IMG/VR virus record: IMGVR_UViG_3300020046_009041
Reading direction: 5' to 3' (one strand)
DNA: 37,041 bases
Source of the DNA: a virus
Shown: one piece after another, positions 1 to 37,041 of the stretch
Position numbering within the stretch: position 1 is the first letter of the stretch
Layout of the letters: every line of letters starts with the position of its first letter
The notes under the pieces: generated by a model
The model's input: the letters and a program-made list of their open reading frames with translations, nothing else
What the model was told of the DNA's origin: nothing
Database searches by the model: none
Position numbers and translations under genes: made by a program

Positions 1-121
1 CTTCCGGAGATAATTCAACGATTCTTCTTCCAGGCATTGATCCGGCCAGTTTATCCCCAGCTTTCTTGGTTAAAGCCTGCGCGCCAACAAGATTTAACCC
101 TATAACTGGGTTTAGTGCGAT
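1..121. repeat. Terminal direct repeat, copy 1 (identical to 36921..37041); marks a circularly closed or terminally redundant genome assembly
   Basis: Read base by base: bases 1-121 (cttccggagataattcaacg...gggtttagtgcgat) equal the last 121 bases of the window. Confidence 0.95.
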
Positions 122-3722: not shown

Positions 3723-5885
3723 TTACTTAGGAAGAAACTCTAACCACGACTTGGCTAAATTCTCCCAGGAATGTTTCTCAATATCAAAATTCACTCTCTC
3801 GCACTTCTTTTCTTGTATCGCATCAACGACAAGCTTAGCATACGTCTCGATATCATTTTGGCTCAAACAGTCCAAATCCACAAGATCTGCCATGCCTTTT
3901 TCTGAAGCTTCTTTAAGAGTGTTCTTCAAAGCTCCATGAGCCCTTGCCACTGGGTAAACTCCACAGGACAACATCTCTCTTGCTGTAATACAACTTGTCT
4001 CGAGAAATTCAGGCACGTAGAGCCAGACTTTCATCTCGCAAAGCTGTTTGGTCAATTGCTTCTGCTCCACATTCCCGTGCATATTAATCCATGATCTAGC
4101 CTGGATCATTTTCTCAAGTCTCACAACCTGATCAATAAGACCCATCTTCTTCATGTTATCAAATCCGTAATAAACGTGCAGTTCTGCATCTGGAATGGAC
4201 TTTCTTACCTCATCCATCACCATAATAACTCGATCTAATCCTCTATCTGGAGAACTTGAGTAAACTACTTTGTTCCCCGTCTTATTCTTAACCAGGTCTT
4301 TAAATCTGTCCGGATTTAGTCCATTGGACGTAATCATGATCTTATCTTCGGGAATAGCTTTCATCCCAGTAATAAAGTCTTTATGGAATTCAGACAAAGC
4401 TAAAACCTTATCGTATTGATGATGATGTTCCATCCCTGGGATAAGAAGATCATGGCACCACAGATAAGTAGGAGCATCTGTAACCTTAATATTGTGTCTC
4501 CATGAAATGTTGGCTTTAGGTTTATGCTTCTTAACATAAGCAGCAAGCGTGTTAACAGGAGCGTAAATAACATCATCGAAAACTTCTTCTTTTTCTCGAT
4601 CGTTAAATACAATCACCTTTTTACCGCTATGCTTTTTCAACCAATAAGCCATCTCTACAACAGCGGTCTCAGATCCTCCAATTCCACGCTCATGATAGAT
4701 CTTTGGGTCCCACTTATAAGGAGAAACACCAGGGCAGCTAATAATGTAAGCATCATCATCCACGCACTCAGATGTGATAACCTCCATGCTAGACTTGATT
4801 CTATCAACTTCTTCAATAATAGCTTTAGACTCTGGGTTGTCTTTGTACTCCAATGCAGCTTGAGCTTCCGCCTTAGCCTTATCCCATTGCTGCATTTGAC
4901 CATAGACTTTAGCCAGCTGGTTTCTTGGGTAAATTCCGTACATATCCCCAAACATAAATAACGGACTAGGACGACTACCACCCTGGCTCTTATCAATACA
5001 CGCTTTTGCGGCATTATATGACGGGATTGCCTCTTCAAGCTTGTGCATGTTGATAAAACTGTCACCAATTATGCAGTAAAATTCTGCACGATGAGGCTCT
5101 AAAGTTAATCCTTGATGGGCAATGTTGATAGCCTGTGGAAACTTTTTGTTCAAAAACAATGAGTAACATAAGTACTGAAGACACAAGATTCTATCATGCA
5201 TCTCAAGATCTAATCTCTGATTAGCCTTTTCAAACCACTCAATAGCCTCTTCTGACTTCTGTGATTCAAATAACTCCTTACCATAATAGTACATCATTCG
5301 AGCATCTAAGGAATCCTTCCTAGAGTCGAACATGCTTAAGTTTCTGTTATGATCTTTCTTTAAATCATCAACAGATCTCATATGCTTAACAGTCCAAGTC
5401 TCGCAAAATGCACTAACAATAGGCTGATTGTCTTTGGCTACCAATCCCTCATGGACAAAATACTTCCAGTAAAACTTTCCGTTGTTTTTAGTAACTCGTT
5501 CTCTAATAAAAGAACAAACAGGTTTACCATTATCATTAGCATAGTGATATGTGGCAATCCAATACTCAGCTAAATGAATAGCCTCTTCTCTAAACTTCTT
5601 AAATGCTTCTTTATTATCTAGATAATCATCTGCATCCAACCACATAATGTAATCGCATTTAGTGTGTGAATACGAATACTCTCTTGCTGCACCAAAATCA
5701 TTCACCCATTTAAAGTGATGTACTTTGGCTCCATACTTTTTTGCGATCTCTACTGTATTATCTGTACTTCCTGTGTCCGTGATGTGGATCTCATCAAAGC
5801 AGCCTTCCACTGACTCCAATACCCTTGGAAGGTTATGCTCTTCATCCTTAACAATCATGCACAATGCTATAGTGGGACGGCTCAT
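3723..5885 (-). CDS. Fusion glycosyltransferase: N-terminal GT-A (family 2-like), central TPR-like repeats, C-terminal GT-B (GT4/group-1-like)
   Basis: ALCMIVKDEEHNLPRVLESV...DEIHITDTGSTDNT...WLDADD (the DxD motif). Helical repeat region at about residues 230-370. C-terminal EX7E block ETSCITAREMLSCGVYPVA. AAAGGAG SD. Confidence 0.8.
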   Translation of the reverse strand: MSRPTIALCMIVKDEEHNLPRVLESVEGCFDEIHITDTGSTDNTVEIAKKYGAKVHHFKWVNDFGAAREYSYSHTKCDYIMWLDADDYLDNKEAFKKFREEAIHLAEYWIATYHYANDNGKPVCSFIRERVTKNNGKFYWKYFVHEGLVAKDNQPIVSAFCETWTVKHMRSVDDLKKDHNRNLSMFDSRKDSLDARMMYYYGKELFESQKSEEAIEWFEKANQRLDLEMHDRILCLQYLCYSLFLNKKFPQAINIAHQGLTLEPHRAEFYCIIGDSFINMHKLEEAIPSYNAAKACIDKSQGGSRPSPLFMFGDMYGIYPRNQLAKVYGQMQQWDKAKAEAQAALEYKDNPESKAIIEEVDRIKSSMEVITSECVDDDAYIISCPGVSPYKWDPKIYHERGIGGSETAVVEMAYWLKKHSGKKVIVFNDREKEEVFDDVIYAPVNTLAAYVKKHKPKANISWRHNIKVTDAPTYLWCHDLLIPGMEHHHQYDKVLALSEFHKDFITGMKAIPEDKIMITSNGLNPDRFKDLVKNKTGNKVVYSSSPDRGLDRVIMVMDEVRKSIPDAELHVYYGFDNMKKMGLIDQVVRLEKMIQARSWINMHGNVEQKQLTKQLCEMKVWLYVPEFLETSCITAREMLSCGVYPVARAHGALKNTLKEASEKGMADLVDLDCLSQNDIETYAKLVVDAIQEKKCERVNFDIEKHSWENLAKSWLEFLPK

Positions 5886-13934: not shown

Positions 13935-16031
13935 TTACATTCCCCCTGCGTTTAACTGACTATTTAATTGATCCTGTGTTTGCTGATTGAGTTCATCTAC
14001 CTGACCTGCGACTTTATCAGTTGTAGAAAGCCCAGGCTCTGGCGGAGGTGGAGCATCTAATGCTGGCCCCCCTTGTGGAGGCATCCCATCTGGTTCAAGA
14101 CCAGGAGGAGGCGGAGCCACTCCACCATCTAAACCTGGTGGCTGCTGAACTCCTGCGGCCATTAATTCAAATTGTAAGTGTTGCTCAATATTGGTCAATA
14201 GAATCTGTTGCTGCCATGGTTCTAAGGTTAAGAACTTGTCACCTTTTCGATATCTATTCTTTTCTCTAATGTGAATCTCGTGGTTATCAAGCTCGTGAGC
14301 CTCTTCCATTGGAAAACCTTTTTCAAGATTATCAATATCTCTCTTAACTTGATTACTATCAAGGGCCGTGTCTTCCCAAACTTCACCAACATCACCGAAC
14401 TCAAGCATTTTAAGAACTTTTTGACTAACACTTGGATCTTGAGGATTACCAAACAATCCTTGTTGAAATAGTGTGATGATAAAGTCTCGTTTTGCCGTGA
14501 TAGATCCAGGAAGTGTCGATCCTTCAATGACCATTACGTCATTGTTTTCACGCATGTCCTGACCTTCAAACTCTTTAACAGTATATTCTAGGTTTTGACC
14601 TGCAATTTTCAAAACTCTTGGAGTGATATAATTCTTTTGTGCAGATTTTAGAGCTAACTGCATTGTTTTGGCTAATGCTAGCTCATTTCTTCTAGCAACA
14701 ATCCCTATTCTTGTATCATCTTGCTCAGATAACCAAGAAAGAGCAATCGCCGCTGTTACTCCACCAGGTGGAACACCACGAGAGGCTTCATTAATACCAA
14801 AAATATCATCAAGCATTGCATCGAGAGTCTTTTCCTCTTCATATGCATAGCTTGGCATTGCTGGAGCAGGCATTGCTGCTGGTGGTGGAGCGTTTGGGAC
14901 TGGATTGTACTCTAAAACTTCACCAGATTGGTCGTTTAACTGCTCGGCATGTAGACCAGAGCCACGAGCCACAAGATATTTACCTGCCAATAGACGATTA
15001 GTCCAAGCAGCACGCATACTAATAACACGGTTAAGCTGATCCTGAATAGGACGAGCATGGGTGATAACACTTTCAGAGTTATATTTTCCACCAATGACAA
15101 TATCATCGAACTTAACAAACGGAAATTCTCCATTTGGAAGCTCCTTGTCCTCTAGTTTTACTCCATTAGCGCAAATAATCATGCGACCATTAGGATATTT
15201 TTTACATCTTTTCTCATAGTATACCAGCTCGATTGCGGAATCCTTCATTTGATTAGCAATACCAGTGGTAGGACCTGTAACAGTTAGGTTGTTAATTCGC
15301 TGTTCATACTGAACGCTTAAGAGCCATGCGCCCTCTTCTTTAACCTGATCACCAATTCCAGGGTAATTATCCCGGAAATACTGTAATGATCTAACCTTTG
15401 CTTGAACTACCCATCGGCAATCATCTAAAGTTTTAGCTAATGGGTCAGGAAATATCTCAAAAGGAGATACCACATCGATTCTTACGTCACCTTCAAACTC
15501 AGATTCACCGGTTAAAGGATCTTCTATTAGGTTACCCAAGTTTGGGTCCCAAGAAACTTTTAAATAAGCATGGCCAGCCTGTTGTACCCACATGTAAAGA
15601 TCAATGAGCCTAGCCGGCATCTTCTCTTTTTCCCAGATCATCTCTAGGACTTGTTCGCTTAATCTTGCCGCGTCTTTGTCTTCAGTGTCATTGCTATTTG
15701 GTTTAACAATATACTTAGGTCGTGATTTGAGAAGCCTTGAGAGCCTATTCTGCGCTCGTGAAATAATTTTATTAACATGGATTCTATTTCGTTTGAGATA
15801 TGAATGTGCGCGTCCGACAGTTTTAAATTGTCTGGAAGTTGTATCGTAATAAACACTGTCAAACCCCAGTAGGTAAGCAATGTTAGTCATTACTTGACCT
15901 TCAAAAGTTACACGTGATCCAGAGGATCGGACTTCCTCAATTTTCTTCTTAATGAACTCGCAGACGCGCTTGTCGTCCACTTGTTCAATATCCTCACCGA
16001 AAATCTTCATCCCATCCATAGGATTGTCCAT
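13935..16031 (-). CDS. Portal protein (698 aa) with a Pro/Gly-rich C-terminal tail
   Basis: Size, position between terL-C and the scaffold; C-terminus PPGLDGGVAPPPPGLEPDGMPPQGGPALDAPPPPEPGL. Confidence 0.7.
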   Translation of the reverse strand: MDNPMDGMKIFGEDIEQVDDKRVCEFIKKKIEEVRSSGSRVTFEGQVMTNIAYLLGFDSVYYDTTSRQFKTVGRAHSYLKRNRIHVNKIISRAQNRLSRLLKSRPKYIVKPNSNDTEDKDAARLSEQVLEMIWEKEKMPARLIDLYMWVQQAGHAYLKVSWDPNLGNLIEDPLTGESEFEGDVRIDVVSPFEIFPDPLAKTLDDCRWVVQAKVRSLQYFRDNYPGIGDQVKEEGAWLLSVQYEQRINNLTVTGPTTGIANQMKDSAIELVYYEKRCKKYPNGRMIICANGVKLEDKELPNGEFPFVKFDDIVIGGKYNSESVITHARPIQDQLNRVISMRAAWTNRLLAGKYLVARGSGLHAEQLNDQSGEVLEYNPVPNAPPPAAMPAPAMPSYAYEEEKTLDAMLDDIFGINEASRGVPPGGVTAAIALSWLSEQDDTRIGIVARRNELALAKTMQLALKSAQKNYITPRVLKIAGQNLEYTVKEFEGQDMRENNDVMVIEGSTLPGSITAKRDFIITLFQQGLFGNPQDPSVSQKVLKMLEFGDVGEVWEDTALDSNQVKRDIDNLEKGFPMEEAHELDNHEIHIREKNRYRKGDKFLTLEPWQQQILLTNIEQHLQFELMAAGVQQPPGLDGGVAPPPPGLEPDGMPPQGGPALDAPPPPEPGLSTTDKVAGQVDELNQQTQDQLNSQLNAGGM

Positions 16032-16041
16032 CTATATTCCT

Positions 16042-16260
16042 TTAAAGAAAGTCGCGCATAACGCTCAAGTCTTCCGCATCCTCTATAACCTTAAAGACTT
16101 CAGGCTTCTTAACGGTATCTTGAACCGTCTTCGCCATCTCATATTCATGGTAACTGCGACTCATAAGTTTATTAAGTAATTTGTGCGTCGCTGTCCAAAA
16201 AATAACCTCCCTGGCAACAATAAATGCCAATAGGAATAGTATAATAATTGGATCAGACAT
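16042..16260 (-). CDS. Small membrane protein (72 aa)
   Basis: N-terminal hydrophobic stretch IIILFLLAFIVAREVIFW. Confidence 0.55.
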   Translation of the reverse strand: MSDPIIILFLLAFIVAREVIFWTATHKLLNKLMSRSYHEYEMAKTVQDTVKKPEVFKVIEDAEDLSVMRDFL

Positions 16261-16564
16261 TGCCGTGGAGTCTATCTTCTAAATTTTCGACAGGCTTATT
16301 TGCTAGCTTTTCTTTAGTTCCCTTTAGGCAAAGCTTAACTTCTTTAACAATACAGTATCCTTGATCACCAATTCCTTTTGGGAAATACCGATCGATATAC
16401 TCCTGGCTTACTTCTACCCACCTATCTTCAAATGGAAGACCTAAAGACTTAACTTTATCTATTTCAGACAAAACAACCATGTCTTCTGGATGATACATTC
16501 CGTATACAGCTCCCATATCTACAGGTTTCAAAGTCTCATTGGGATTAATAGCTTTCGCCATCAT
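16253..16564 (-). CDS. Hypothetical protein (103 aa)
   Basis: ORF overlapping the end of terL-C by 20 nt; no motif recognised. Confidence 0.6.
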   Translation of the reverse strand: MMAKAINPNETLKPVDMGAVYGMYHPEDMVVLSEIDKVKSLGLPFEDRWVEVSQEYIDRYFPKGIGDQGYCIVKEVKLCLKGTKEKLANKPVENLEDRLHGNV

Positions 16565-17339
16565 AAGCCTCCTTGTTCTTTTTTAGCAGGTTCTTAATGT
16601 ACCAGCTTTCATATCCAGGATCGTTAGGTGCTGGATCTGTCATTATCTTAGCAGGCTTTTGAGGATACACAACTATCTCATCCATATAAGCCAGTGAGTC
16701 AATCAAATCATCATGGGCTCCACGTGGGAATTGTCCCAACTCCATCTCAAGATCAGTTAGTCCTTGAGCAAAATATATTCTACCGAATTCAAATCGTGGA
16801 ACTAGTGACAATATACGAGTTGATTTTGATTTACTTGTATCTGGTTTAATTCCTTTAACTGGAACAACCTCACCACGCCTCTGCATCTCTTCGGCACACA
16901 TATAGAGCAGAGCTTTTTGATAAGCTACTTCTTCGATACCTATAACCATTGGTTTAAAAACCTGATTTGCTTTAAACACAAGGTTAACAATTTCAGTAGG
17001 AGATATCTTATATCTGTTAGCTGCTACCACATACCACTTCTTGTCTTCATCGACTTTTATAACAACAAGAGCAGTAAAATCATTATGTACATCAGTGCCA
17101 ATAGCAGGATCAATAAACACGAAAGTATTGGTAGGTGCAGGTATTGTTTCGAAGTACCTAAACCATTCTTTTTTAAACGACTTGGCATCATCTGGAATTA
17201 CCACATTTTGGTATTGGTTGGCGAAGATATACGATCCAAGCATCTTATGCTGTTGGTCCAGGAACTCTTTACTTAATCGTTCTGGAAAGAAAAGAGAACC
17301 ATCATCTCTAATTGCTTTCTCGTAAATCATTTCCCACAT
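16545..17339 (-). CDS. terL: Terminase large subunit, C-terminal part (linker plus RNase-H-like nuclease domain) as a separate 264-aa ORF
   Basis: LFFPERLSKEFL...FANQYQN linker motif, then FVFIDPAIG...DFTALVVI, IGIEEVAYQ and GAHDDLIDSLAYM acidic blocks typical of TerL nucleases. Its ATG overlaps the upstream stop (TAATG). Confidence 0.8.
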   Translation of the reverse strand: MWEMIYEKAIRDDGSLFFPERLSKEFLDQQHKMLGSYIFANQYQNVVIPDDAKSFKKEWFRYFETIPAPTNTFVFIDPAIGTDVHNDFTALVVIKVDEDKKWYVVAANRYKISPTEIVNLVFKANQVFKPMVIGIEEVAYQKALLYMCAEEMQRRGEVVPVKGIKPDTSKSKSTRILSLVPRFEFGRIYFAQGLTDLEMELGQFPRGAHDDLIDSLAYMDEIVVYPQKPAKIMTDPAPNDPGYESWYIKNLLKKNKEAYDGESY

Positions 17340-18298
17340 TAACCAAATCCATAAATTCTTGATATAGTTCCATCATTACCTGGATCACCAACAGAACCAT
17401 CAGCCAAGCAAGGATTTCCACCATTACCACCAATAGCACTGCAATTAATACTTTCCGTATTATTTAAAGAGATTAAGACAATGACGCCACCACCACCGCC
17501 ACCACCGCCTCCGCCAATATCTCCACCATTACCATCTAAGCCATTTCCCCCTGCTGATCTAAAAAATCCTTGTCCGTAAATATTCTTAGCAGCGCAAACA
17601 ATTATGCCGCCGCCACCACCACCTGCTCCACCAGTTCCACCACCACCTTCACCATTGGAACCACCACCGCCACCACCACCGCCTGACCCACCTTGAAACG
17701 ATTCGTTGGTTGTAGCTACTTTGGCTTGAATCCAATTGATTGCATTTTGATAAAGATTAGATCCGCCTTTATACGAGAATGGATTTCCAGTTACTCCACC
17801 TAATCCACCAGTGGAAAAATTACTTCCACCACCATTTCCACCGTTACCACCATAACTGTTAGTGGCTCCCGCTGCATCCTCACCATTTACGTCAGAGCTA
17901 TCAGCCCCAGCTATTCCGTTACCATATACATTGCCGGCACCAGCGGTCTGACCATTAGCAGAGTTGTCTACTAATCCGTCATTCTTTAAATACTCTTTAC
18001 AGAAAATTCTAAAACCATTTGTTTTTATTGTTCCACTAATACCCACAGTTAATGAGTTATAGTACATATCCCTTGATAGAGTAGTTGTAGCTCCATCTAC
18101 CGTTACATTACCGTCTATCCCAGTTCCAAAAAAGAAATCATTAAAACTAGGTAAACCATCATAATTAGCTGATTGAGTTGTAATTGTGTATTGGCTTAAT
18201 GAAATACCATTAGGAATCTGAAGAGTTGAACTTGCCGCTACTTGAAAAGCAGGCAAAGAAGATCCAATAGAATAAAACGTGTAAAGCGTTTGACTCAT
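17339..18298 (-). CDS. Poly-glycine-tract protein, paralogue 1 (319 aa), fibre-like
   Basis: FGTGIDGNVTV...LSRDMYYNSLTV...GFRIFC N-terminal block. Two Gly runs (GGGGGGGGSNGEGGGGTGGAGGGGGG; GGGGGGGGGG), each followed by a hydrophobic strand (IIVCAAKNIYGQG; VIVLISL). Confidence 0.75.
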   Translation of the reverse strand: MSQTLYTFYSIGSSLPAFQVAASSTLQIPNGISLSQYTITTQSANYDGLPSFNDFFFGTGIDGNVTVDGATTTLSRDMYYNSLTVGISGTIKTNGFRIFCKEYLKNDGLVDNSANGQTAGAGNVYGNGIAGADSSDVNGEDAAGATNSYGGNGGNGGGSNFSTGGLGGVTGNPFSYKGGSNLYQNAINWIQAKVATTNESFQGGSGGGGGGGGSNGEGGGGTGGAGGGGGGIIVCAAKNIYGQGFFRSAGGNGLDGNGGDIGGGGGGGGGGVIVLISLNNTESINCSAIGGNGGNPCLADGSVGDPGNDGTISRIYGFG

Positions 18299-19272
18299 GA
18301 TGGAATTCCGTAAACTTTAATTACCATCCCTGTAGAACCAGCCGACCCAACAAAAGAGCTATCATCCACACGAGCACCACCAGCACCAGGTGATACATTA
18401 CAAACAATGGATGACGTATCGTTATTGGAGTAAAGAGCAATTAAACCACCGCCTCCGCCACCACCACCGCCACTAGATCCCGCAGGATCTCCTATTGCTC
18501 CATCTCCGCCATTACCACCAACAGCCTTAAATGTTCCTTGGCCTAATATGTTTTTAGCAAACACCATTACGATGCCGCCACCTGATCCGCCGCCACCACC
18601 GAATGTTGAGCCTCCATCTCCGCCGCCGCCGCCACCACCACCGCCGCCAGTGAATGCAGTGGTTAGCTTTAGACCACAAGCCAATACAGCTTGAAATGGA
18701 TTAAGAATTAAATACGTACCACCTTGAACAGCGCTCAATGAAGTAATAGCTCCACCAGTTCCACCACTAGAACCAGAGCTGCCAGCTCCGCCCCTACCAC
18801 CGTTTCCGCCAAATCCATAAAGAGGGTTAGTGCCATTAGACCCAGCAAAGTTTCCACCATTGCCACCCTTAGCACTTCCAACAAATACTCCAGTTGGAAC
18901 ACCAGAAACACCAGTGCTATCACTAGCGTTGATTCCATTACACTGAATTACTCCATTATTATTCAAGTAATCCCTACAGAATATTCGAAAGTTTTGCGTA
19001 TTGATAACGCCAGATAATCCTACATTTAAAGTGCTGTAGTACATGTCAGAAGTAAGAGTAACAGTTGTGTTAACCGTTACATCCCCATCAGAGCCCATTC
19101 CATAAAGAAGAGTGTTTTGACCAGATAAAGAATCAAAGTTAGCTGGCGTTGATATTACAACAAAGCTTGCAAAGTTAATATTCTGAGGAAGGGATGTGGT
19201 AGCCCCAGCAGCAAACTGCCAAATAATCGTAGAGCCACCAATACCGTAAAAGTTATAAATATTTTGCGCCAT
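18295..19272 (-). CDS. Poly-glycine-tract protein, paralogue 2 (325 aa)
   Basis: YGMGSDGDVTV...LTSDMYYSTLNV...NFRIFC; GGGGGGGGGGDGG...GGGGGSGGGIVMVFAKNILGQG; GGGGGGGGGLIALYS. Confidence 0.75.
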   Translation of the reverse strand: MAQNIYNFYGIGGSTIIWQFAAGATTSLPQNINFASFVVISTPANFDSLSGQNTLLYGMGSDGDVTVNTTVTLTSDMYYSTLNVGLSGVINTQNFRIFCRDYLNNNGVIQCNGINASDSTGVSGVPTGVFVGSAKGGNGGNFAGSNGTNPLYGFGGNGGRGGAGSSGSSGGTGGAITSLSAVQGGTYLILNPFQAVLACGLKLTTAFTGGGGGGGGGGDGGSTFGGGGGSGGGIVMVFAKNILGQGTFKAVGGNGGDGAIGDPAGSSGGGGGGGGGLIALYSNNDTSSIVCNVSPGAGGARVDDSSFVGSAGSTGMVIKVYGIPS

Positions 19273-19288
19273 CCATGGCCCCCATTTG

Positions 19289-20449
19289 TTATGTTCTTAC
19301 TCTAAACACGTTTCCATTAGATCCATCAGCACCAGTTCCACCAGTTCCAGAACCAGCAGCGCCAGTTCCTTTAAGAGCCTGAATGGTTAACGATGTAGCC
19401 GTAGTGTCGTTTTCAGTAATAACAACAACACATCCACCGCCACCACCGCCACCACCTCCAGAGTTACCAGAAGCAGGTGTGAATCCATTTCCACCGTTAG
19501 CTTGAATTGTTCCAGATCCAGTAAGCATCTTTGCGGCTATAATTACAATTCCGCCGCCCGATCCACCACCACCACCAGCAACAGATGTATCACCAGCACC
19601 ACCGCCACCGCCGGCTCCACCAGTGTATTTGGTTGAACCATCTCGTAGAAGCGCACTAATACATGAAGGAAGAGTTCTAATAGCAACAGTTCCACCTAAT
19701 ATAGCAGATGGAACGTTTGCAGCTCCACCACCACCAATAGATCCACCACCAGCAGTTCCACCACTACCACCAGCACCACCAGAGGCATTATTGCTTGCGC
19801 CCCCACCAGAACCATTGGTCGTACTTCCATTACCACCACCACCGCCAGATCCCGCGATAGATCCAGTAGAAGGAGCGCCACCACCAGTTGAGCTAGTAGC
19901 AGTATTTCCGTTGTTTCTGATAGTTCCTTCGCAAGTAACAGTACCAGCGCAAAATAATCTAAATCCTGCTGTTGATAAAACTATTCCATTGTTTACAGTT
20001 AAAGAACTAAACATTGTATCTCTAGACAGAGACGCATTCGAAGAAATTGTGGTAGCACCATCAGATCCGTCACCGAATAGCGCAGAGTTGGTTTGAGTTC
20101 CATAAAGAGTAACCTGAGTAGCACTTTGAGTAACACCAACACCATTGGTTGCACCAATACTTCTAAACTCAAATGTAGCACCAGTAACTTGAGCAAATAA
20201 TGTGGCACCTGAGCCTAAATTAGCCCCATTCATTGCGCCATAAAGAGTAATATCGGTAGCACTTTGAGTAACACCTATACCTAAAGTAACTCCGATAGTT
20301 CTAAATTCTAGATTAGTGCCGCTAGCTTGAGCAAATACAGTCGCGCCAGTACCTAAGTTAGTACCACCAGTGATTGTTCCACCACCACCGCCACCGCCTC
20401 CACCAGCTCCACCTAATGACGTGATGATACCTGTTCCGATAATAGACAT
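19289..20449 (-). CDS. Poly-glycine-tract protein, paralogue 3 (386 aa) with an extra N-terminal duplicated ~43-aa segment
   Basis: FGDGSDGATTI...LSRDTMFSSLTV...GFRLFC; GGGGGSGGGIVIIAAKMLTGSG; GGGGGGGGGCVVVIT. N-terminal repeat GTNLGTGATVFAQASGTNLEFRTIGV... / GANLGSGATLFAQVTGATFEFRSIGA... Confidence 0.75.
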   Translation of the reverse strand: MSIIGTGIITSLGGAGGGGGGGGGTITGGTNLGTGATVFAQASGTNLEFRTIGVTLGIGVTQSATDITLYGAMNGANLGSGATLFAQVTGATFEFRSIGATNGVGVTQSATQVTLYGTQTNSALFGDGSDGATTISSNASLSRDTMFSSLTVNNGIVLSTAGFRLFCAGTVTCEGTIRNNGNTATSSTGGGAPSTGSIAGSGGGGGNGSTTNGSGGGASNNASGGAGGSGGTAGGGSIGGGGAANVPSAILGGTVAIRTLPSCISALLRDGSTKYTGGAGGGGGAGDTSVAGGGGGSGGGIVIIAAKMLTGSGTIQANGGNGFTPASGNSGGGGGGGGGCVVVITENDTTATSLTIQALKGTGAAGSGTGGTGADGSNGNVFRVRT

Positions 20450-20459
20450 AGATTACCCC

Positions 20460-20738
20460 TTAACCTGCTGTTGTACCTTTAATGTAATGAACCGTTACCG
20501 TCGCACCTGTAGCGGCAAAATAAAGACTACCAACAGAGTTGAAACCAAGAGCACCGGTATCCATAAGATAACCTTTTCCCCAGGTAAGTGTTGCCCCACC
20601 AATTTCAAGAGAGCCACCAGTAATATACTTAACAAGGATAGAATTTTGCCCTGCGATTAATGATAAACCAATAATTGAGCTTAATCCTACGAAAAACTTC
20701 CCAGAAATTACGTCTTGGGCAAAATCTCTACTAGCCAT
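20460..20738 (-). CDS. Small beta-rich protein (92 aa)
   Basis: AAAGGAG SD 7 nt before the ATG; G/S/T-rich. Confidence 0.65.
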   Translation of the reverse strand: MASRDFAQDVISGKFFVGLSSIIGLSLIAGQNSILVKYITGGSLEIGGATLTWGKGYLMDTGALGFNSVGSLYFAATGATVTVHYIKGTTAG

Positions 20739-20818
20739 CCTAGATCTCCTTTAATCGTTATTGCCTTAATGATGAATCACATCACCAAACATGTCCATCA
20801 ATTCTAAATCTGACTAAA

Positions 20819-21511
20819 TTACTTATAACAAAGGTCGTGAATATTATTGGTCCATAAATGAGTGTTAGGACACTGCCTTTCCACATACTCTGAAAACCTG
20901 TGGACAAGTGAGTATTGCATGTCATCCACATATCCTGGAACTGGAAGAGGTTTATGGTATTCTATAGCTAAGTAGTTTACTTGATCCCATTTAGTGAACT
21001 TATGAAGGATCTCATACTCGGCTCTTTCCACATCCATCTTCATGAAATCCACATGAGACGCTCCCACTATTTCATCAAGAGTTACTGAATCAACAGACGG
21101 AATTGCCGGATCATGATTATTAGCAAACACAATGCTTGCACCACCACTATTTTCTTTGGGAGCCACAAGCCTTGTCTTTTTTCCAGAGCTACCAACTACA
21201 CCAAGATTGTAAGGATGAACGTTATTACATCCATTTACTTCAAGATTACGTCTTAGATTCCAATAAGTGTCAGGCATAGCTTCATAAGCGTAGATGGTAG
21301 CATCAGGATAAATCTTGCTCATAAGGATTGAGAATATTCCAACGTGAGCACCGATATCGATGATTACTTTAGGATTACCAATTAGATGCTGATTCTTAAC
21401 AACACCATAGGCATCTTCTTCTTTAAACTCTCTCATGATGTTGATGATTGCTTCCGGTGAATTATCGTTGAGCTTGAGACTGTCAAGGATGGCGTTTATC
21501 TTATCTTTCAT
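20819..21511 (-). CDS. FkbM-family SAM-dependent methyltransferase (230 aa)
   Basis: VIIDIGAHVGIFSILMSKIYPDATIYAYEAMPDTYWNLRRNLEVNG matches the FkbM-type glycine motif and layout as I remember it. Confidence 0.75.
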   Translation of the reverse strand: MKDKINAILDSLKLNDNSPEAIINIMREFKEEDAYGVVKNQHLIGNPKVIIDIGAHVGIFSILMSKIYPDATIYAYEAMPDTYWNLRRNLEVNGCNNVHPYNLGVVGSSGKKTRLVAPKENSGGASIVFANNHDPAIPSVDSVTLDEIVGASHVDFMKMDVERAEYEILHKFTKWDQVNYLAIEYHKPLPVPGYVDDMQYSLVHRFSEYVERQCPNTHLWTNNIHDLCYK

Positions 21512-21519
21512 TTTATTCC

Positions 21520-21660
21520 TTAAATTTTTGGATTCCAGTACATGTCGATTTGATCTTTAAGAAGATCAACTTCACGTTGTAGTGCTGCTACCTTTTCAAT
21601 TAGAGAAGTAATTTGAATAGTAAGAACGGCCCATGCCTTATCGACTTGATTATCTTCCAT
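21520..21660 (-). CDS. Small coiled-coil ORF (46 aa) missing from the 60-aa track: MEDNQVDKAWAVLTIQITSLIEKVAALQREVDLLKDQIDMYWNPKI
   Basis: Hand translation; AAGGAG 5 nt upstream of the ATG at 21660; fills the gap between terL-N and the methyltransferase. Confidence 0.5.
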   Translation of the reverse strand: MEDNQVDKAWAVLTIQITSLIEKVAALQREVDLLKDQIDMYWNPKI

Positions 21661-21679
21661 CACCACTCCTTGGGTATGA

Positions 21680-22405
21680 TTACAATAATACGCCCATATT
21701 ATTTTGCAACGGTTGTTCCATGCTCTTCAGTATTTTACCCGGGAGATCATTCTCGGAGTATCGCGTTGCAGTTACTACAACAGTTCCATCTGGCTCAAGG
21801 ATGGCCATGTTGTACTTGAAATGATCCCAACACTTCTCACATGCTTCTGGTGTTTGAGAGTTATTGTTAGAGTTTAAGTCGTCCACGAGTAGAACATCAA
21901 CGTGCTGACCGACTTTTGTGGTGCCCATGCCCGCAGCTTGCACAGATGCTTCCTTAAGGTTTGTAGTACGAGCTGCAATGATGATTTCACCTTCATTCCA
22001 AACAGGACCTCTCCAATCACCAAATAGCTCAACGAATGCTGGATCTTCTAAATGTAGTTTAATAGCTCGGATAAAGTTTTTACTGTTGGTGTAGAGTTCT
22101 GAATCGACCATGATCCTAAGGTTGGGATTATTGATAAGTCTCCATATGCTATAACCAACCACTGCAATTGTGGACTTGAATGCACCACGCGGACACACAA
22201 TAAGCTTACGAGTGCTCTCAGACTCAAGTACTTTAATAATTTCACCATGAGTTCTCTTATTAACATCCTTATATCCAAGCAAAGAATTTAAGGTGTGGAA
22301 TAGTGATTTCTTATATAACTGTATAAGAAATTGTTTGCGTATTTCCTTATGATATTCTTTTGGAAATTGTTTTATCTTTTCTTCAATTGTGGCGTGCAGG
22401 TTCAT
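21680..22405 (-). CDS. terL: Terminase large subunit, N-terminal ATPase domain as a separate 241-aa ORF
   Basis: Walker A-like VCPRGAFKST, Walker B VDVLLVDDL, coupling motif VTATRYSENDL. The ORF stops (TAA at 21680) right after the ATPase domain. Confidence 0.8.
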   Translation of the reverse strand: MNLHATIEEKIKQFPKEYHKEIRKQFLIQLYKKSLFHTLNSLLGYKDVNKRTHGEIIKVLESESTRKLIVCPRGAFKSTIAVVGYSIWRLINNPNLRIMVDSELYTNSKNFIRAIKLHLEDPAFVELFGDWRGPVWNEGEIIIAARTTNLKEASVQAAGMGTTKVGQHVDVLLVDDLNSNNNSQTPEACEKCWDHFKYNMAILEPDGTVVVTATRYSENDLPGKILKSMEQPLQNNMGVLL

Positions 22406-22697
22406 TGAGCAATCTTAACACCTGTTTAATGTCATCTTTAAGCTCTTTATAATCAGCTCTGAATTGACTCATAGTCTCCCTAAAGTGTTCAAGGGTAACA
22501 AAGCTATCATTAAGACCCGCTAATCGTTTTTCTGATTCAAGCTGTCTAGCATTACCAGATAACTCAATCTGACGTATGAGTGATGTTACTTCTCTTAGAT
22601 CATCCTCTAAGCGTTTTACCTTAGCTGTAACCATACCCCAAGTAACAAGCACGCTAGATAAAGATCCAGCTATTGCAATCACAACGCTATTGTCCAT
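22383..22697 (-). CDS. Membrane-anchored coiled-coil protein (104 aa) between terS and terL-N
   Basis: N-terminal hydrophobic VVIAIAGSLSSVLVTWGMV followed by heptad-like charged sequence. Confidence 0.6.
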   Translation of the reverse strand: MDNSVVIAIAGSLSSVLVTWGMVTAKVKRLEDDLREVTSLIRQIELSGNARQLESEKRLAGLNDSFVTLEHFRETMSQFRADYKELKDDIKQVLRLLNEPARHN

Positions 22698-22699
22698 TA

Positions 22700-23125
22700 T
22701 TAATTGTTTTCTGATTTATTAAATTGCGCAAGTGCTACATTAACCAACTCAGCAGCTACGTCTTTCGCTTGTGAAAGAACTTCCTCAGTCTTGTTAATAC
22801 TTGAAGCATCCACTTTGATTTGATCATTATTATGCCATTTATGTCTGTTCTTCATGTTGAACATCCAAACAGCAGCATTAAAGCCATTTCCATTCATTCC
22901 GTTGATGCCAGCACCTTCCCAAAAACGCAGGTTTGCTGCATGTGCTTTTTTATAGGCTTCGGAGAATTCAGGATGGACTTTCAACCATTCATACAAAGTG
23001 TCAATATGAACATCAACCGCATCAGCAAATGCTTGGAAGCTGTACCCATGGCGCATATCCTCGATTAGTTGTGCGCAGTACTCTGGTTTATATTTGGTCG
23101 GCTGACCAGGCTTTTTACCTTCCAT
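22700..23125 (-). CDS. terS: Terminase small subunit (141 aa)
   Basis: GQPTKYKPEYCAQLIEDMRHGYSFQAFADAVDVHIDTLYEWLKVHPEFSEAYKKA...FNMKNRHKW, the HTH-type TerS pattern; first gene of the late unit. Confidence 0.75.
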   Translation of the reverse strand: MEGKKPGQPTKYKPEYCAQLIEDMRHGYSFQAFADAVDVHIDTLYEWLKVHPEFSEAYKKAHAANLRFWEGAGINGMNGNGFNAAVWMFNMKNRHKWHNNDQIKVDASSINKTEEVLSQAKDVAAELVNVALAQFNKSENN

Positions 23126-29416: not shown

Positions 29417-29731
29417 TTATTTTACTAAACCTGATCCTGACCATGGCCATGACACTGACCCTGACCCTAACCCTGACCATGACCCTAACCGTGACCCTAA
29501 CCCTGACCGTGACCATGACCCTGACCGTGACCCTAACCGTGACCCTAACCGTGACCCTAACCGTGACCCTAACCCTGACCGTGACCATGACCCTGACCGT
29601 GACCATGACCCTAACCCTGACCGTGACCCTAACCGTGACCCTAACCCTAACCCTGACCGTGACCCTAACCCTGACCGTGACCATGACCCTGACCGTGACC
29701 GTGATGTTTTTTTATATTGTTTTTTAGTCAT
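29417..29731 (-). CDS. Basic low-complexity repeat protein (104 aa): MTKKQYKKT + (SR/SG/SW/LG)n
   Basis: ATG overlaps the TGA of the upstream gene (ATGA), with GAGGA upstream. Its TAA lies just before the SD of the next gene. The body is the hexamer array. Confidence 0.55.
   Translation of the reverse strand: MTKKQYKKTSRSRSGSWSRSGLGSRSGLGLGSRLGSRSGLGSWSRSGSWSRSGLGSRLGSRLGSRLGSRSGSWSRSGLGSRLGSWSGLGSGSVSWPWSGSGLVK
29431..29706. repeat. Hexanucleotide array, 46 units (NTRACC on the plus strand; GGTCAG/GGTCAC/GGTCAT/GGTTAG on the minus)
   Basis: Hand parse: 29455-29700 is 41 perfect units drawn from only four words (CTGACC 11, GTGACC 13, CTAACC 12, ATGACC 5). Confidence 0.95.
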
Positions 29732-30171
29732 ACATCCTCAATTTCAAAAATTTCCAGGAGCGTGGAGCGTAGGTGGTTTTTTCTAATAGGTTTATATACG
29801 CCTTTATTAAATTCATCCCAATTTTCTCTTGTATGTAACATATCTATTTCGCCATCGTCATCCAACCACACATGCTCCCAGTGCTCGATCTTGCGGGTTG
29901 GTTTCTTATCAAGTTGTGTAATAACAATACGGTCGGGTTGTACACCGAGCGGATCTTTCCATATTTCTTTCCCATGCTGCGGCTGTGACACCTTACCCTC
30001 CACATGAAACAAGGATGGTTCTTTGTGCCAGGAGTGCGATTTACCATCAAGACAGAACCCAACACTGGCATTATTAAATTCTGCAAGCAAGGACGCATGA
30101 TCTATATAAGCAACCACACCCTCAACACCGCACCACGTGACTTTGTCGCCTACGAAAAATGATTTGTTCAT
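29728..30171 (-). CDS. Hypothetical protein (147 aa)
   Basis: Long ORF between the two repeat ORFs; no motif recognised. Confidence 0.7.
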   Translation of the reverse strand: MNKSFFVGDKVTWCGVEGVVAYIDHASLLAEFNNASVGFCLDGKSHSWHKEPSLFHVEGKVSQPQHGKEIWKDPLGVQPDRIVITQLDKKPTRKIEHWEHVWLDDDGEIDMLHTRENWDEFNKGVYKPIRKNHLRSTLLEIFEIEDV

Positions 30172-30306
30172 CTTATCATCTCTTCAAATAACTCAAACAC
30201 ACTGACTCCAGGTTGTATCTGTTCTTGATCAGGTTGATTGCAAAATATACCTGGAAACATAGTAGGATTAGGTTGGCTATGATTAGGTTACGGAGGAGTC
30301 TGGTCA

Positions 30307-30561
30307 TCAGCCGTAGCCGTCGCCGTTGCCGTTGCCGTCGCCGTTGCCGTAGCCGTCGCCGTTGCCGTTGCCGTCGCCGTTGCCGTAGCCGTAGCCGTTG
30401 CCGTCGCCGTAGCCGTTGCCGTCGCCGTTGCCGTTGCCGTCGCCGTCGCCGTAGCCGTTGCCGTTGCCGTAGCCGTAGCCGTAGCCGTTGCCGTCGCCGT
30501 AGCCGTTGCAGTAAGATGATTGAGACAAATCACCAATCATTACTTGATTAGTTTTTTCCAT
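30307..30561 (-). CDS. Acidic dipeptide-repeat protein (84 aa): MEKTNQVMIGDLSQSSYC + (NG/YG/DG)x33
   Basis: AAGGAG 5 nt upstream of the ATG at 30561; body is (GGC-[A/G/T]AC)n; TGA at 30307. Confidence 0.6.
   Translation of the reverse strand: MEKTNQVMIGDLSQSSYCNGYGDGNGYGYGYGNGNGYGDGDGNGNGDGNGYGDGNGYGYGNGDGNGNGDGYGNGDGNGNGDGYG
30313..30510. repeat. Hexanucleotide array, 33 units (GTNGCC on the plus strand; GGCTAC/GGCGAC/GGCAAC on the minus)
   Basis: Hand parse: 32 perfect units (GTAGCC 10, GTCGCC 9, GTTGCC 13) plus one degenerate unit. GTGGCC is never used. Confidence 0.95.
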
Positions 30562-31351: not shown

Positions 31352-31556
31352 GTATTATAGGTATTATAATTGTGAGCCGCAAGTTCTCAGTCAGGTTTGT
31401 GTATGTTGCAAAAAGGAAAAGAACCGTGGCGAATTCCATGTTTCGAGTAGCTGTCGCAATGGTATTCACAAAACCTGCAAGGAATGTGTTAAGATTCGCA
31501 AGGCTAAATCTTCGACTTTGGCCTCGCAGGTAGACACTTCCTTAAAAACGCCTTAA
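31332..31556 (+). CDS. Small Cys-rich zinc-finger-like protein (74 aa from MAGRRSR; track ORF starts at 31284)
   Basis: CVCCKKEKNRGEFHVSSSCRNGIHKTCKECVKIR (CxxC...CxxC); 3' end overlaps the convergent VRR-NUC gene by 53 nt. Confidence 0.5.
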   Translation: MAGRRSRYYRYYNCEPQVLSQVCVCCKKEKNRGEFHVSSSCRNGIHKTCKECVKIRKAKSSTLASQVDTSLKTP

Positions 31557-31923
31557 GTCCATCGTGGTTATTAGATAACTTAAAAGACATAGATAGATTG
31601 TATGTATCAACAAATGAATCAAGGCTGTCAGAAACTATAGCAATACCATCTCTTTCAATTATTGATTCCAGGAAATCAAACTGCTCAGGCTTAACCGTCG
31701 ATCTCCTGCCTTTTGCCTTGACCTCTACGGCTATGAACTGCCCCCAGTTGTTGCACATTATGAGATCAGACACTCCCTTAGTGGTCTTGCTTGCAACAAA
31801 TCTTTTAGCTCCAGGAACAAAGACCCCTTTGGAGTCTACCGTAAAAACTACAAGCCCTTTTAGCCTGGCATATTGTTCTATTTGATCCTGAATTTTCTTT
31901 TCCGGTTTTTTTCTTTTTAACAT
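31504..31923 (-). CDS. VRR-NUC family nuclease (139 aa)
   Basis: GVSDLIMCNNWGQFIAVEVKAKGRRSTVKPEQFDFLESI fits the D...E-x-K...Q pattern of VRR-NUC. Confidence 0.7.
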   Translation of the reverse strand: MLKRKKPEKKIQDQIEQYARLKGLVVFTVDSKGVFVPGAKRFVASKTTKGVSDLIMCNNWGQFIAVEVKAKGRRSTVKPEQFDFLESIIERDGIAIVSDSLDSFVDTYNLSMSFKLSNNHDGLKAFLRKCLPARPKSKI

Positions 31924-36369: not shown

Positions 36370-37041
36370 CTAACCGTATTGTCTGCCGTAATTGTAAGAA
36401 GCTTGCTGTTGAGTCCCTTGAGTGGGCGCTTTATTTAAACTCTGATTGCCATATTGTGGAGTGGAATAGGATGGACCAGATGCTGGTTTAGCGGCAGATG
36501 CACCAATTATATTTCCTCCAGCTCCGAGTAGACCCTTAACTAAAGCTTGCCTTGCTTGTTGTTGGGCCGCTACAGCTTGAGCTCTCCTCATAGCATTTTC
36601 CATCTGCATGTTTTGAGATGCCGTAATAACACCAGCGCTTTGACCTAATCTATTAGCTCTCTGTTGAGTGGCTGCTAGCCTCTGAGCCTCAAAAGACTTA
36701 GATAAATCTGAATTTGAGATTCTTCTAGTTCTGTTTGATAAAGCTTCACTAAATCCACCAGGAAGAGATCCACCAAGCTGAGACTGAGATGCTTCTAATG
36801 CTTTTGGTAAATCGCCAATTATTCCTTGCTGTATTTCAGGAACGCCTTCTCTTGCTTGCTTCAACAAATCTTCTTCAGATAATTGAGAGTCCTTGTACAA
36901 GGCATCCTCTAAAGCTTTTTCTTCCGGAGATAATTCAACGATTCTTCTTCCAGGCATTGATCCGGCCAGTTTATCCCCAGCTTTCTTGGTTAAAGCCTGC
37001 GCGCCAACAAGATTTAACCCTATAACTGGGTTTAGTGCGAT
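36370..37041 (-). CDS. Ala/Gln/Gly-rich virion protein. The ORF stays open to the window edge; the true start is probably 157 after circularisation (about 235 aa)
   Basis: The track ORF starts at 36957 (no SD), but the frame is open upstream through the terminal repeat. Confidence 0.7.
   Translation of the reverse strand: MALNPVIGLNLVGAQALTKKAGDKLAGSMPGRRIVELSPEEKALEDALYKDSQLSEEDLLKQAREGVPEIQQGIIGDLPKALEASQSQLGGSLPGGFSEALSNRTRRISNSDLSKSFEAQRLAATQQRANRLGQSAGVITASQNMQMENAMRRAQAVAAQQQARQALVKGLLGAGGNIIGASAAKPASGPSYSTPQYGNQSLNKAPTQGTQQQASYNYGRQYG
36921..37041. repeat. Terminal direct repeat, copy 2 (identical to 1..121)
   Basis: Same 121-nt string as the window start; unique genome length is therefore 36,920 bp. 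Confidence 0.95.

Follow-up and report, generated by a model that had tools for sequence, protein, structure and literature searches.

How is one large terminase subunit (TerL) obtained from two genes that lie 4.3 kb apart? This question is raised by IMG/VR record IMGVR_UViG_3300020046_009041, a stretch of phage DNA of 37,041 nucleotides (nt), hereafter the window. TerL is normally one polypeptide; however, the window encodes it in two open reading frames (ORFs), an N-terminal half (terL-N) and a C-terminal half (terL-C), and the same arrangement is found in 34 related loci. A first-pass annotation of the window had taken the two ORFs for a single terL divided into two genes. That terL is genuinely split is borne out by an identical break in 34/34 related loci, by C-halves with their own starts and by invariant catalytic motifs. 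The features concerned are:

21680..22405, minus strand: terL-N, 241 amino acids (aa), Rossmann/RecA core of the TerL ATPase (phrog_38 positions 276-465, E=1e-33)
16545..17339, minus strand: terL-C, 264 aa, predicted last ATPase β-strand and lid helices, linker and RNase-H-like nuclease (phrog_38 positions 468-708, E=5e-46)
17337..17341, minus strand: TAATG stop/start overlap, candidate translational-coupling junction of terL-C, read from the sequence

The two halves and the clade that shares the break

Both ORFs lie on the minus strand where the first-pass annotation had placed them, with all the motifs it had quoted, and profile searches identify each of them as a part of TerL. The two halves occupy adjacent ranges of one profile, phrog_38 (terminase large subunit), and by motifs, predicted fold and gene neighbours they fit the T7/P22-like branch of TerLs. 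terL-N additionally matches phrog_4758, a half-length profile of 243 positions (E=2e-17), and terL-C matches Pfam Terminase_6C (E=1e-10) over residues 76-218 only. terL-N carries the Walker A (PRGAFKS), Walker B (VDDL) and motif III (TATRY) elements of an ASCE ATPase, with PRG..KS, DD and TRY invariant in 25 N-halves. The nuclease motifs FIDPA, IGIEE and HDDLID are found on terL-C, where D77, E136, D211 and D214 are invariant in 44 C-halves. Such purifying conservation of motifs in both halves lends indirect, sequence-based support to an active two-chain complex. The intact relative P0009 is collinear with the pair, its residues 28-216 corresponding to the N-half and 225-461 to the C-half. Relative to intact TerLs the halves are complete except for a linker that is 6-8 residues shorter, so the earlier description of one normal TerL with nothing missing holds apart from this small difference. 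A second, full-length terL is absent from the window: tblastn with three intact TerLs matched the two halves only, and the genome therefore contains no other terL. The genome searched, about 36.9 kb long, is a complete one, because the window begins and ends with an exact 121-bp terminal direct repeat.

The fused TerL sequence was searched against 5.8 billion proteins and the best 120 matches were considered. About 108 of these are stand-alone C-halves of 271-286 aa with 46-61% identity, often located on 35-40 kb contigs; TerLs in one piece (about 490 aa) are not reached until identity has dropped to 34-41%. When HMMER was run exhaustively with the N-half, the nearest relatives were again stand-alone proteins (241-260 aa). 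Querying IMG/VR with a single protein gave no match, and the loci analyzed here come from a profile-based scan of that database, which returned 80 loci. At a C-half identity of 44% or more, terL is broken at the same homologous position in 34 of 34 IMG/VR loci, with matches to the N-half stopping at query residue 221-239 and those to the C-half beginning at residue 1-2. At 42% identity or less, the N and C parts are found in one ORF (24 IMG/VR loci). Related genomes thus hold the same split, and intact terL is encountered in more distant relatives. Both halves co-occur and co-evolve at every locus where both are visible. In a neighbor-joining tree, the split forms and one intact protein, P0175, form a clade with 99.8% bootstrap support. 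P0175 (508 aa, L085 578-2104) is 44% identical to the window N-half and has an unusually long linker; its context is limited to a 2.1-kb contig. The split is an old character of this clade and not an accident of one genome. The remark that terminase halves set apart by a multi-gene cassette are unusual is valid for phages generally but not within this clade, where a multi-gene gap is the rule.

Further forms were observed around the clade. Two C-halves, P0119 (425 aa) and P0080 (337 aa), have N-terminal extensions, and in P0119 a zeta-toxin/P-loop kinase domain (PF06414) lies ahead of the terL-C part, the arrangement expected if a cargo gene and the downstream half had fused. Several short proteins of 226-299 aa that share only 33-39% identity with the N-half likewise stop near query residue 227-232 (P0197, P0220, P0222, P0248, P0268, P0276, P0280, P0286 and P0304), which suggests that this loop may have been split repeatedly in other TerL lineages. 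Two such cases were checked, L083 and L084 (the latter is described below). Locus L083 (124-1552), also from another lineage, encodes a 242-aa N-half followed after 16 nt by a 227-aa nuclease-only ORF. The strand-plus-lid region appears to be absent from it or to have diverged beyond recognition, and the locus may reflect either another type of split or a frameshift introduced by sequencing.

Where in the fold does the break fall? An AlphaFold (AF2) model of the fused halves has a predicted local distance difference test score (pLDDT) of 77 and a predicted template modeling score of 0.65. In Foldseek it matches full-length TerLs, namely those of PhiV-1 (8DGC, E=6e-20), T4 (gp17), D6E and Sf6 (structures 8DGC_E, 3CPE, 5OE8 and 4IEI). 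The junction between residues 229 and 230 of the fused model lies in a loop, with a helix (221-228) before it and a β-strand (232-235) after it. Two helices follow downstream of this strand (253-273), and the first nuclease strand, containing the catalytic Asp of FIDPA, starts at about residue 299. The nuclease domain accordingly begins at about residue 74 of the C-half, with the Pfam limit at residue 76. The break itself is located 15 residues past motif III. In T4 gp17, the ATPase domain continues for about 73 residues beyond motif III. Sequence alignment places the first 30 residues of the C-half opposite residues ~222-251 of a T7-type TerL, and crystallized ATPase-only constructs align over about 270-290 columns in Foldseek, compared with the 229 residues of the N-half. 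Based on the Pfam domain limits, the T7-type alignment, the Foldseek lengths and the gp17 domain limits, we conclude that the cut would run through the ATPase domain, leaving the core on one chain and the predicted last strand, the lid and the nuclease on the other. The earlier placement of the break at the ATPase/nuclease boundary is therefore not upheld, since the C-half appears to begin with an ATPase strand and lid helices. The full set of ATPase motifs claimed for terL-N is present; however, the domain is not complete at its TAA, its last strand and lid being predicted on terL-C.

The 12-aa tail of terL-N, which ends in …NNMGVLL, resembles a motif common to N-half tails, …NELGLKS…GVY…, and this motif also occurs in the long linker of P0175 (…NELELREFPYGRYDKGE/WAIVYKRA…). 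As N-half tails and the P0175 linker share this motif, the ancestor had an extended loop and the break lies at the C-terminal end of that loop. Random read-through was considered as an origin of the tail and rejected; by its homology to the P0175 linker, the tail is a remnant of the extended loop.

Translation of terL-C and rival explanations

How might the second half be made? The TAA of the last gene between the halves overlaps the ATG of terL-C (17339), as had been noted in the first-pass annotation. No Shine-Dalgarno sequence is present upstream of terL-C; in the genome, a Shine-Dalgarno core of 4 nt or more is found for 22 of the 41 genes. All 35 C-halves possess their own start codon (ATG in 25, TTG in 6 and GTG in 4), located within 5 codons of a conserved W-x-V-Y-E-K-A motif in 30/35. 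In 28/35 loci the start overlaps the upstream stop (ATGA or TAATG) or is at most 5 nt away from it, irrespective of which gene is located upstream. Intact relatives have ordinary residues and no start codon at this position. The N-half has its own stop codon, and both fragments are thus independently translatable. A coupled start combined with the lack of a Shine-Dalgarno sequence is a signature of termination-reinitiation, and we infer that terL-C may be translated by this mechanism. If terL-C is translated from whichever gene adjoins it upstream, the stretch from the small terminase gene terS to the portal gene would therefore behave as one operon.

We consider the following explanation, taken as a whole, probable. 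terL-N would supply the nucleotide-binding ATPase core; the linker, the nuclease and the remainder of the ATPase (its last strand and lid) would come from terL-C, and the two separately translated chains would assemble non-covalently into one enzyme whose break lies at a surface loop. terL-C would be translated by termination-reinitiation from its upstream neighbor, here via TAATG. The old split would have made the new gene boundary a hot spot at which accessory genes are gained, lost and exchanged, and an endonuclease insertion would have been its origin.

Alternatively, the halves could act independently, with the N-half serving as a packaging ATPase like phi29 gp16 and the C-half as a free-standing cutting nuclease. 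ATPase-only packaging enzymes are known, nuclease-less phi29 gp16 being one of them, and the halves are separate polypeptides, each with its own start and stop, an arrangement that would permit different stoichiometries. However, the nuclease chain is predicted to carry the end of the ATPase domain (last strand and lid), without which the N-half would have an incomplete ATPase. Both halves are moreover found together, and co-evolve, wherever they can be seen, and translation of the C-half appears tied to the same operon. We regard independent action as unlikely.

Could the halves instead be joined at the RNA level, by a divergent group I or group II self-splicing intron that contains ORFs and yields one spliced mRNA? 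Intron-split terL is well documented, including by RNA sequencing (RNA-seq) (PMC12880540, PMC4299906), and divergent introns can escape Rfam models. In window positions 16000-23000, however, Rfam returned no intron or other family at the gathering score or at E<=1. Seven short-gap loci gave nothing either, nor did L083, L084 and L011 at a permissive threshold. The minimal gaps of the clade measure 298-339 nt and are filled end to end by an ORF of 95-111 aa; since this coding sequence fills them, they leave no room for a ribozyme core. A conserved start codon, mostly fused to the upstream stop, is present on 35/35 C-halves and would be needless for an exon, and sister taxa show no relationship in the length or content of their gaps. 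An intron is consequently very unlikely, and the earlier statement that the locus resembles neither an intron nor a recent mobile insertion agrees with a split shared by 34 loci and with the C-half starts.

Excision of the cassette from the DNA during infection, which would restore an intact terL, has precedents in developmentally excised bacterial elements such as skin and nifD. No direct or inverted repeats bracket the cassette, the only repeats found being poly-Gly coding repeats, and no recombinase, integrase or transposase is encoded in it or among the 86 other gap ORFs of the clade. Minimal gaps hold just a gene for a β-sandwich protein of about 100 aa, and the C-half start codons point to expression in the split state. 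Excision is therefore highly improbable. An equally poor case can be made for a mobile-element insertion that inactivated terL and left a defective or helper-dependent element. Essential phage genes can indeed receive insertions, but here the break was kept while the halves diverged to 44-61% identity with invariant catalytic motifs, and the genome is complete with a full set of structural and lysis genes. The cassette encodes no homing endonuclease detectable with Pfam or PHROG, and terminator-like sites show no excess. The absence of endonuclease, intein, recombinase, flanking repeat and intron noted on first inspection is thus reproduced by the Pfam, PHROG, Rfam and repeat searches.

Joining by protein trans-splicing through a split intein, as in GOS-TerL or AceL-TerL, is hardly credible. 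Metagenomic split-intein TerL loci do exist (PMC2677866) and relatives of the window carry inteins, but no intein was found at the junction and neither half has a Hint or intein Pfam match. terL-C begins with M-W directly at the homology, lacking Cys, Ser or Thr, while C-halves of the clade generally start 0-11 residues ahead of the homology. Known TerL split inteins need a C-part of more than 100 residues (PMC2677866), compared with a 12-aa N-half tail and no C-half extension here. The inteins of relatives (Hint_2 or LAGLIDADG) were seen in the C-halves P0079, P0087 and P0096, in the intact P0110 and in the N-halves P0169 and P0174. They occupy the HDD nuclease motif, ATPase motif III and the Walker B region of N-halves, and none is located at the split site. 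Judged by these sequences, the TerL lineage is heavily visited by selfish elements.

An assembly chimera, with 17.3-21.7 kb misjoined into the gene, has nothing in its favor beyond the a priori possibility in metagenomes; it has a negligible probability and is refuted by independent assemblies: the same gene order recurs in a contig from another Joint Genome Institute (JGI) sample (L081, 37,029 bp; 99.77% identity, 34 single-nucleotide polymorphisms and 0 indels over 14.8 kb), a 3.9-kb contig from a third JGI sample (L082) is 100% identical across the cassette/terL-C junction, and 34 further loci share the break.

The variable island and its genomic setting

Six ORFs lie between the halves on the same strand, as listed previously. 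The six genes do not form a unit, however: only one of them, from now on called F1, recurs among related loci, and the others are variable cargo. From the terL-N side to the terL-C side they are:

21520..21666, minus strand: small cargo ORF, 48 aa from GTG or 46 aa from the ATG at 21660, AAGGAG Shine-Dalgarno upstream, no family
20819..21511, minus strand: FkbM-type S-adenosylmethionine (SAM) methyltransferase, cargo (Pfam Methyltransf_21, E=1e-11; phrog_8156 methyltransferase, E=4e-20)
20460..20738, minus strand: F1, 92 aa, predicted all-β sandwich/jellyroll of unknown function, the only recurrent gap gene
19289..20449, minus strand: Gly-rich paralogue 1, 386 aa, cargo (phrog_13336, unknown function, E=4e-8)
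18295..19272, minus strand: Gly-rich paralogue 2, 325 aa, cargo (phrog_13336, E=4e-8)
17339..18298, minus strand: Gly-rich paralogue 3, 319 aa, cargo, its TAA stop overlapping the terL-C ATG

The small ORF is called as a 46-aa gene in the independent contig L081. Gly-rich paralogues 2 and 3 share 39% identity (E=9e-28), and paralogue 1 shares 37% identity over 204 aa with a gap protein of 532 aa from L035, the only split locus that has the three Gly-rich paralogues in common with the window. Paralogue 3 (17339-18298) has no match in cultured phages and paralogue 1 (386 aa) no PDB-sequence match. Assignment of the paralogues to the Gly_rich_2 family was considered and not made, their L035 relative having no Pfam Gly_rich_2 match. 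Within paralogue 1, a 129-nt segment is present as a tandem duplicate (20100-20228 and 20238-20366; 73% identity), which encodes two modules of about 43 aa (…GATVFAQASGTNLEFRTIG…).

Across the clade, the gap ranges from 84 nt (L011) to 7.2 kb (L035), with kilobase differences between sister taxa, and contains 0 to ~14 unrelated cargo genes. BLAST clustering yielded more than 80 gap gene families, mostly singletons. Gap content thus varies among close relatives while the flanks are conserved, the hallmark of an accessory island. Apart from the genes seen in the window, the gaps of other loci encode GT2 glycosyltransferases, a family that looks like SAM methyltransferases, an N6/N4 DNA methylase and an ART-PolyVal domain. 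They also encode large fibre-like proteins rich in Gly, Ser and Thr, one of which has a terminal K1-lyase_C tailspike domain, as well as a chaperone for tail-fibre assembly, a ConA-like lectin domain and a single HNH_3 endonuclease (L010). The picture that emerges from these sequences is of a hypervariable island of modification genes and probable receptor-binding genes. At the lower extreme, in L011 (1-1089), 84 nt separate the N-half stop from the C-half homology; they contain a Lys-rich ORF of 24 codons, and the reading frame is the same for the N and C parts.

F1 family members (92-116 aa) are found in 25/35 split loci, frequently duplicated, and three minimal gaps (L037, L051 and L054) contain no gene other than F1. 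A further search identified 46 unannotated homologues of 92-118 aa. F1 has no Pfam, PHROG or PDB-sequence match. Its AF2 model (pLDDT 82.5) is a seven-strand β-sandwich, which in Foldseek resembles uncharacterised small phage proteins (template modeling score, TM, 0.7-0.8) and, weakly, the subunits of Bacillus Ena appendages (pilins; Ena1B, TM 0.55) and cupins. The family was not detected in 10/35 split loci, including L011, L004 and L042, and F1 is therefore unlikely to be an obligatory bridging subunit or clamp of the two TerL chains; this candidate role was set aside.

With regard to the genome as a whole, a podovirus-like gene set is present, comprising terS, a P22-like portal, scaffold, major head protein and internal virion protein, together with an Erf-like recombinase, a replication initiator and an endolysin. 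The packaging/head module extends downstream of terL-C, and terS and the portal gene are located on the terL strand. The remaining features of this region and of the genome ends are:

22700..23125, minus strand: small terminase subunit terS, start of the packaging operon (phrog_309, E=5.5e-23; weak Pfam Sf6_terminase)
22383..22697, minus strand: ORF of 104 aa, unknown function, in the terS/terL-N interval (ORF list; no PHROG or Pfam family)
13935..16031, minus strand: portal protein (Pfam P22_portal, E=2e-20; phrog_156, E=4e-42)
1..121, repeated at 36921-37041, no strand: terminal direct repeat, exact 121-nt match between the ends

The 104-aa ORF overlaps the start of terL-N by 23 nt. Cultured phages contain no close relative, tblastn with each TerL half giving distant matches of at most 31% identity, and ARAGORN found no tRNA genes in the window. 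A protein of 720 aa encoded within the structural module (3723-5885, minus strand) has two glycosyltransferase domains (phrog_13126, E=8e-47; phrog_2170, E=3e-15). Together with the FkbM methyltransferase of the cassette it hints at glycosylation or other modification of virion or host surface components. Positions 29500-30500 have a GC content of 0.51, compared with about 0.40 for the genome, and overlapping ORFs on both strands; ORF 29728-30171 in this patch has no PHROG match. A 139-aa endonuclease-like gene (31504-31923, minus strand; phrog_93, E=9e-14) is located at a distance from terL.

Possible origin, significance and known systems

How could such a split arise? Locus L084 (433-2358) encodes terL-N, an Endonuclease_7/HNH gene (1110-1478; Pfam E=1e-24) and terL-C, and is broken at the same loop. 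The start of the endonuclease gene overlaps the terL-N stop, and terL-C overlaps its end. L084 represents a different TerL lineage, its N-half being 36% identical to that of the window and grouping with intact forms. The same-site split in L084 marks the loop as a permissive, recurrent target. By analogy, it suggests how the window clade may have begun, namely with insertion of an endonuclease gene that was later lost. In L010, the HNH_3 gene is one of several genes in the gap. According to the explanation proposed here, a free-standing homing endonuclease gene would have inserted into the permissive loop, a stop codon and a coupled start codon would have been gained, and the endonuclease would then have been lost. 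The resulting boundary, situated between two of the most conserved stretches of the genome, would subsequently have gathered and exchanged cargo. What began as a selfish insertion in an essential gene would thereby have been domesticated into a stable gene boundary and finally into a hot spot for accessory genes.

It should be noted that several points weigh against this explanation or qualify it. A clade of split forms only has a bootstrap support of 27%, with the intact P0175 placed at or inside it, and strict monophyly of the split forms is thus not supported. P0175 can be either the unsplit sister of all split forms or a nested secondary re-fusion; its placement allows a re-fusion or a second split event and hence qualifies a single origin. 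The endonuclease origin, like coupling as the mode of translation, is deduced, and it draws on one locus, L084, from another lineage. Physical assembly and activity of the two chains are likewise a prediction from conserved sequence, and docking of strand 232-235 onto the N-half sheet is one from the model. The location of the break inside the ATPase domain leans on domain limits, alignments and textbook gp17 limits. Finally, group I models of Rfam miss divergent introns, and by sequence alone trans-splicing is formally possible.

A bolder extension, which we offer tentatively and consider rather doubtful, is that the split is exploited and not merely tolerated, the terL halves serving as recombination arms and as a translational frame for a swappable host-range/modification cassette. 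If true, terL would contain a cassette dock, co-infecting relatives could trade its cargo as a block, and polar mutations could not silence the cargo without loss of the nuclease-bearing terminase chain. In a stronger form of this cassette-dock reading, F1 may join the terminase as a third subunit or may be an anchor for fibres, connecting packaging with virion decoration.

Of all known molecular packaging machines, the strongest has TerL as its motor, and in current models force is transmitted from the ATPase core via the lid to the nuclease domain. A TerL cut between core and lid, and kept so by a whole clade, would imply that the connection between core and lid need not be covalent, and a two-chain TerL would offer a ready-made system for work on the motor mechanism. 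TerL is also the standard marker for detection and classification of tailed phages. Half TerLs of about 240 and 270 aa are likely to be taken for fragments, pseudogenes or errors of assembly, as the case of phage φPDS1 discussed below illustrates, and for classification of this clade the halves need to be concatenated.

In the literature we found no description of a conserved split terL that lacks intron, intein and endonuclease and combines a coupled half with a cargo island. The closest counterparts are genes in pieces, as exemplified by nrdA of Aeromonas phage Aeh1, which is split by the free-standing homing endonuclease gene mobE. As in Aeh1 nrdA, an essential phage enzyme is encoded in two separately translated chains that are broken at a permissive site and presumably reassemble non-covalently. 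The terL of L084, with an endonuclease gene between the halves at the same site, is exactly of this type. Unlike genes in pieces, however, the window and most of its clade have no endonuclease but 0 to ~14 cargo genes in the gap, and the split is fixed across a diverse clade instead of being confined to single isolates.

Terminase genes interrupted by other means have been described repeatedly. Group I introns interrupt terL in Jug phages, with splicing shown by RNA-seq (PMC12880540), and terL introns are also known from Bacillus phage Moonbeam and Lactobacillus phage LL-H (PMC4299906). There, too, terL is divided into two or more ORFs and the intervening DNA may carry genes, but the mRNA is respliced, whereas the loci described here have no ribozyme signal, coding gaps and a conserved downstream start. 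Metagenomic "fractured genes" with split inteins include a gp17-like terminase (Dassa et al. 2009, PMC2677866). They share with the window terminase halves on separate genes with a gene between them; in contrast, they have intein parts, protein ligation and an endonuclease spacer, and no intein sequence is found here. The herpesvirus terminase gene UL15/UL89 consists of two exons with 2-5 other genes in the intron (PMC6466031). This is a homologous packaging enzyme with several unrelated genes between its coding parts, but its parts are joined into one protein by the host spliceosome, whereas the window would yield two chains. To our knowledge, phages are without spliceosomal splicing machinery.

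A terL in two coding sequences was noted in Parabacteroides phage φPDS1, where the authors suspected a codon-table or assembly problem (PMC10773633), and PHROGs contains two half-length terL families, 4758 and 5573. Like the window, these examples place stand-alone genes for the ATPase part and the nuclease part of TerL in deposited genomes; they were mentioned in passing, and for them we found no account of a conserved break point, a coupling signature or a cargo island. Lastly, the gap resembles moron or plasticity islands in its variable same-strand cargo (transferases, fibre- or spike-like proteins and occasional endonucleases) between conserved flanks. It differs from them in that the flanks are the halves of one essential enzyme, the downstream half of which appears to be coupled through the island.

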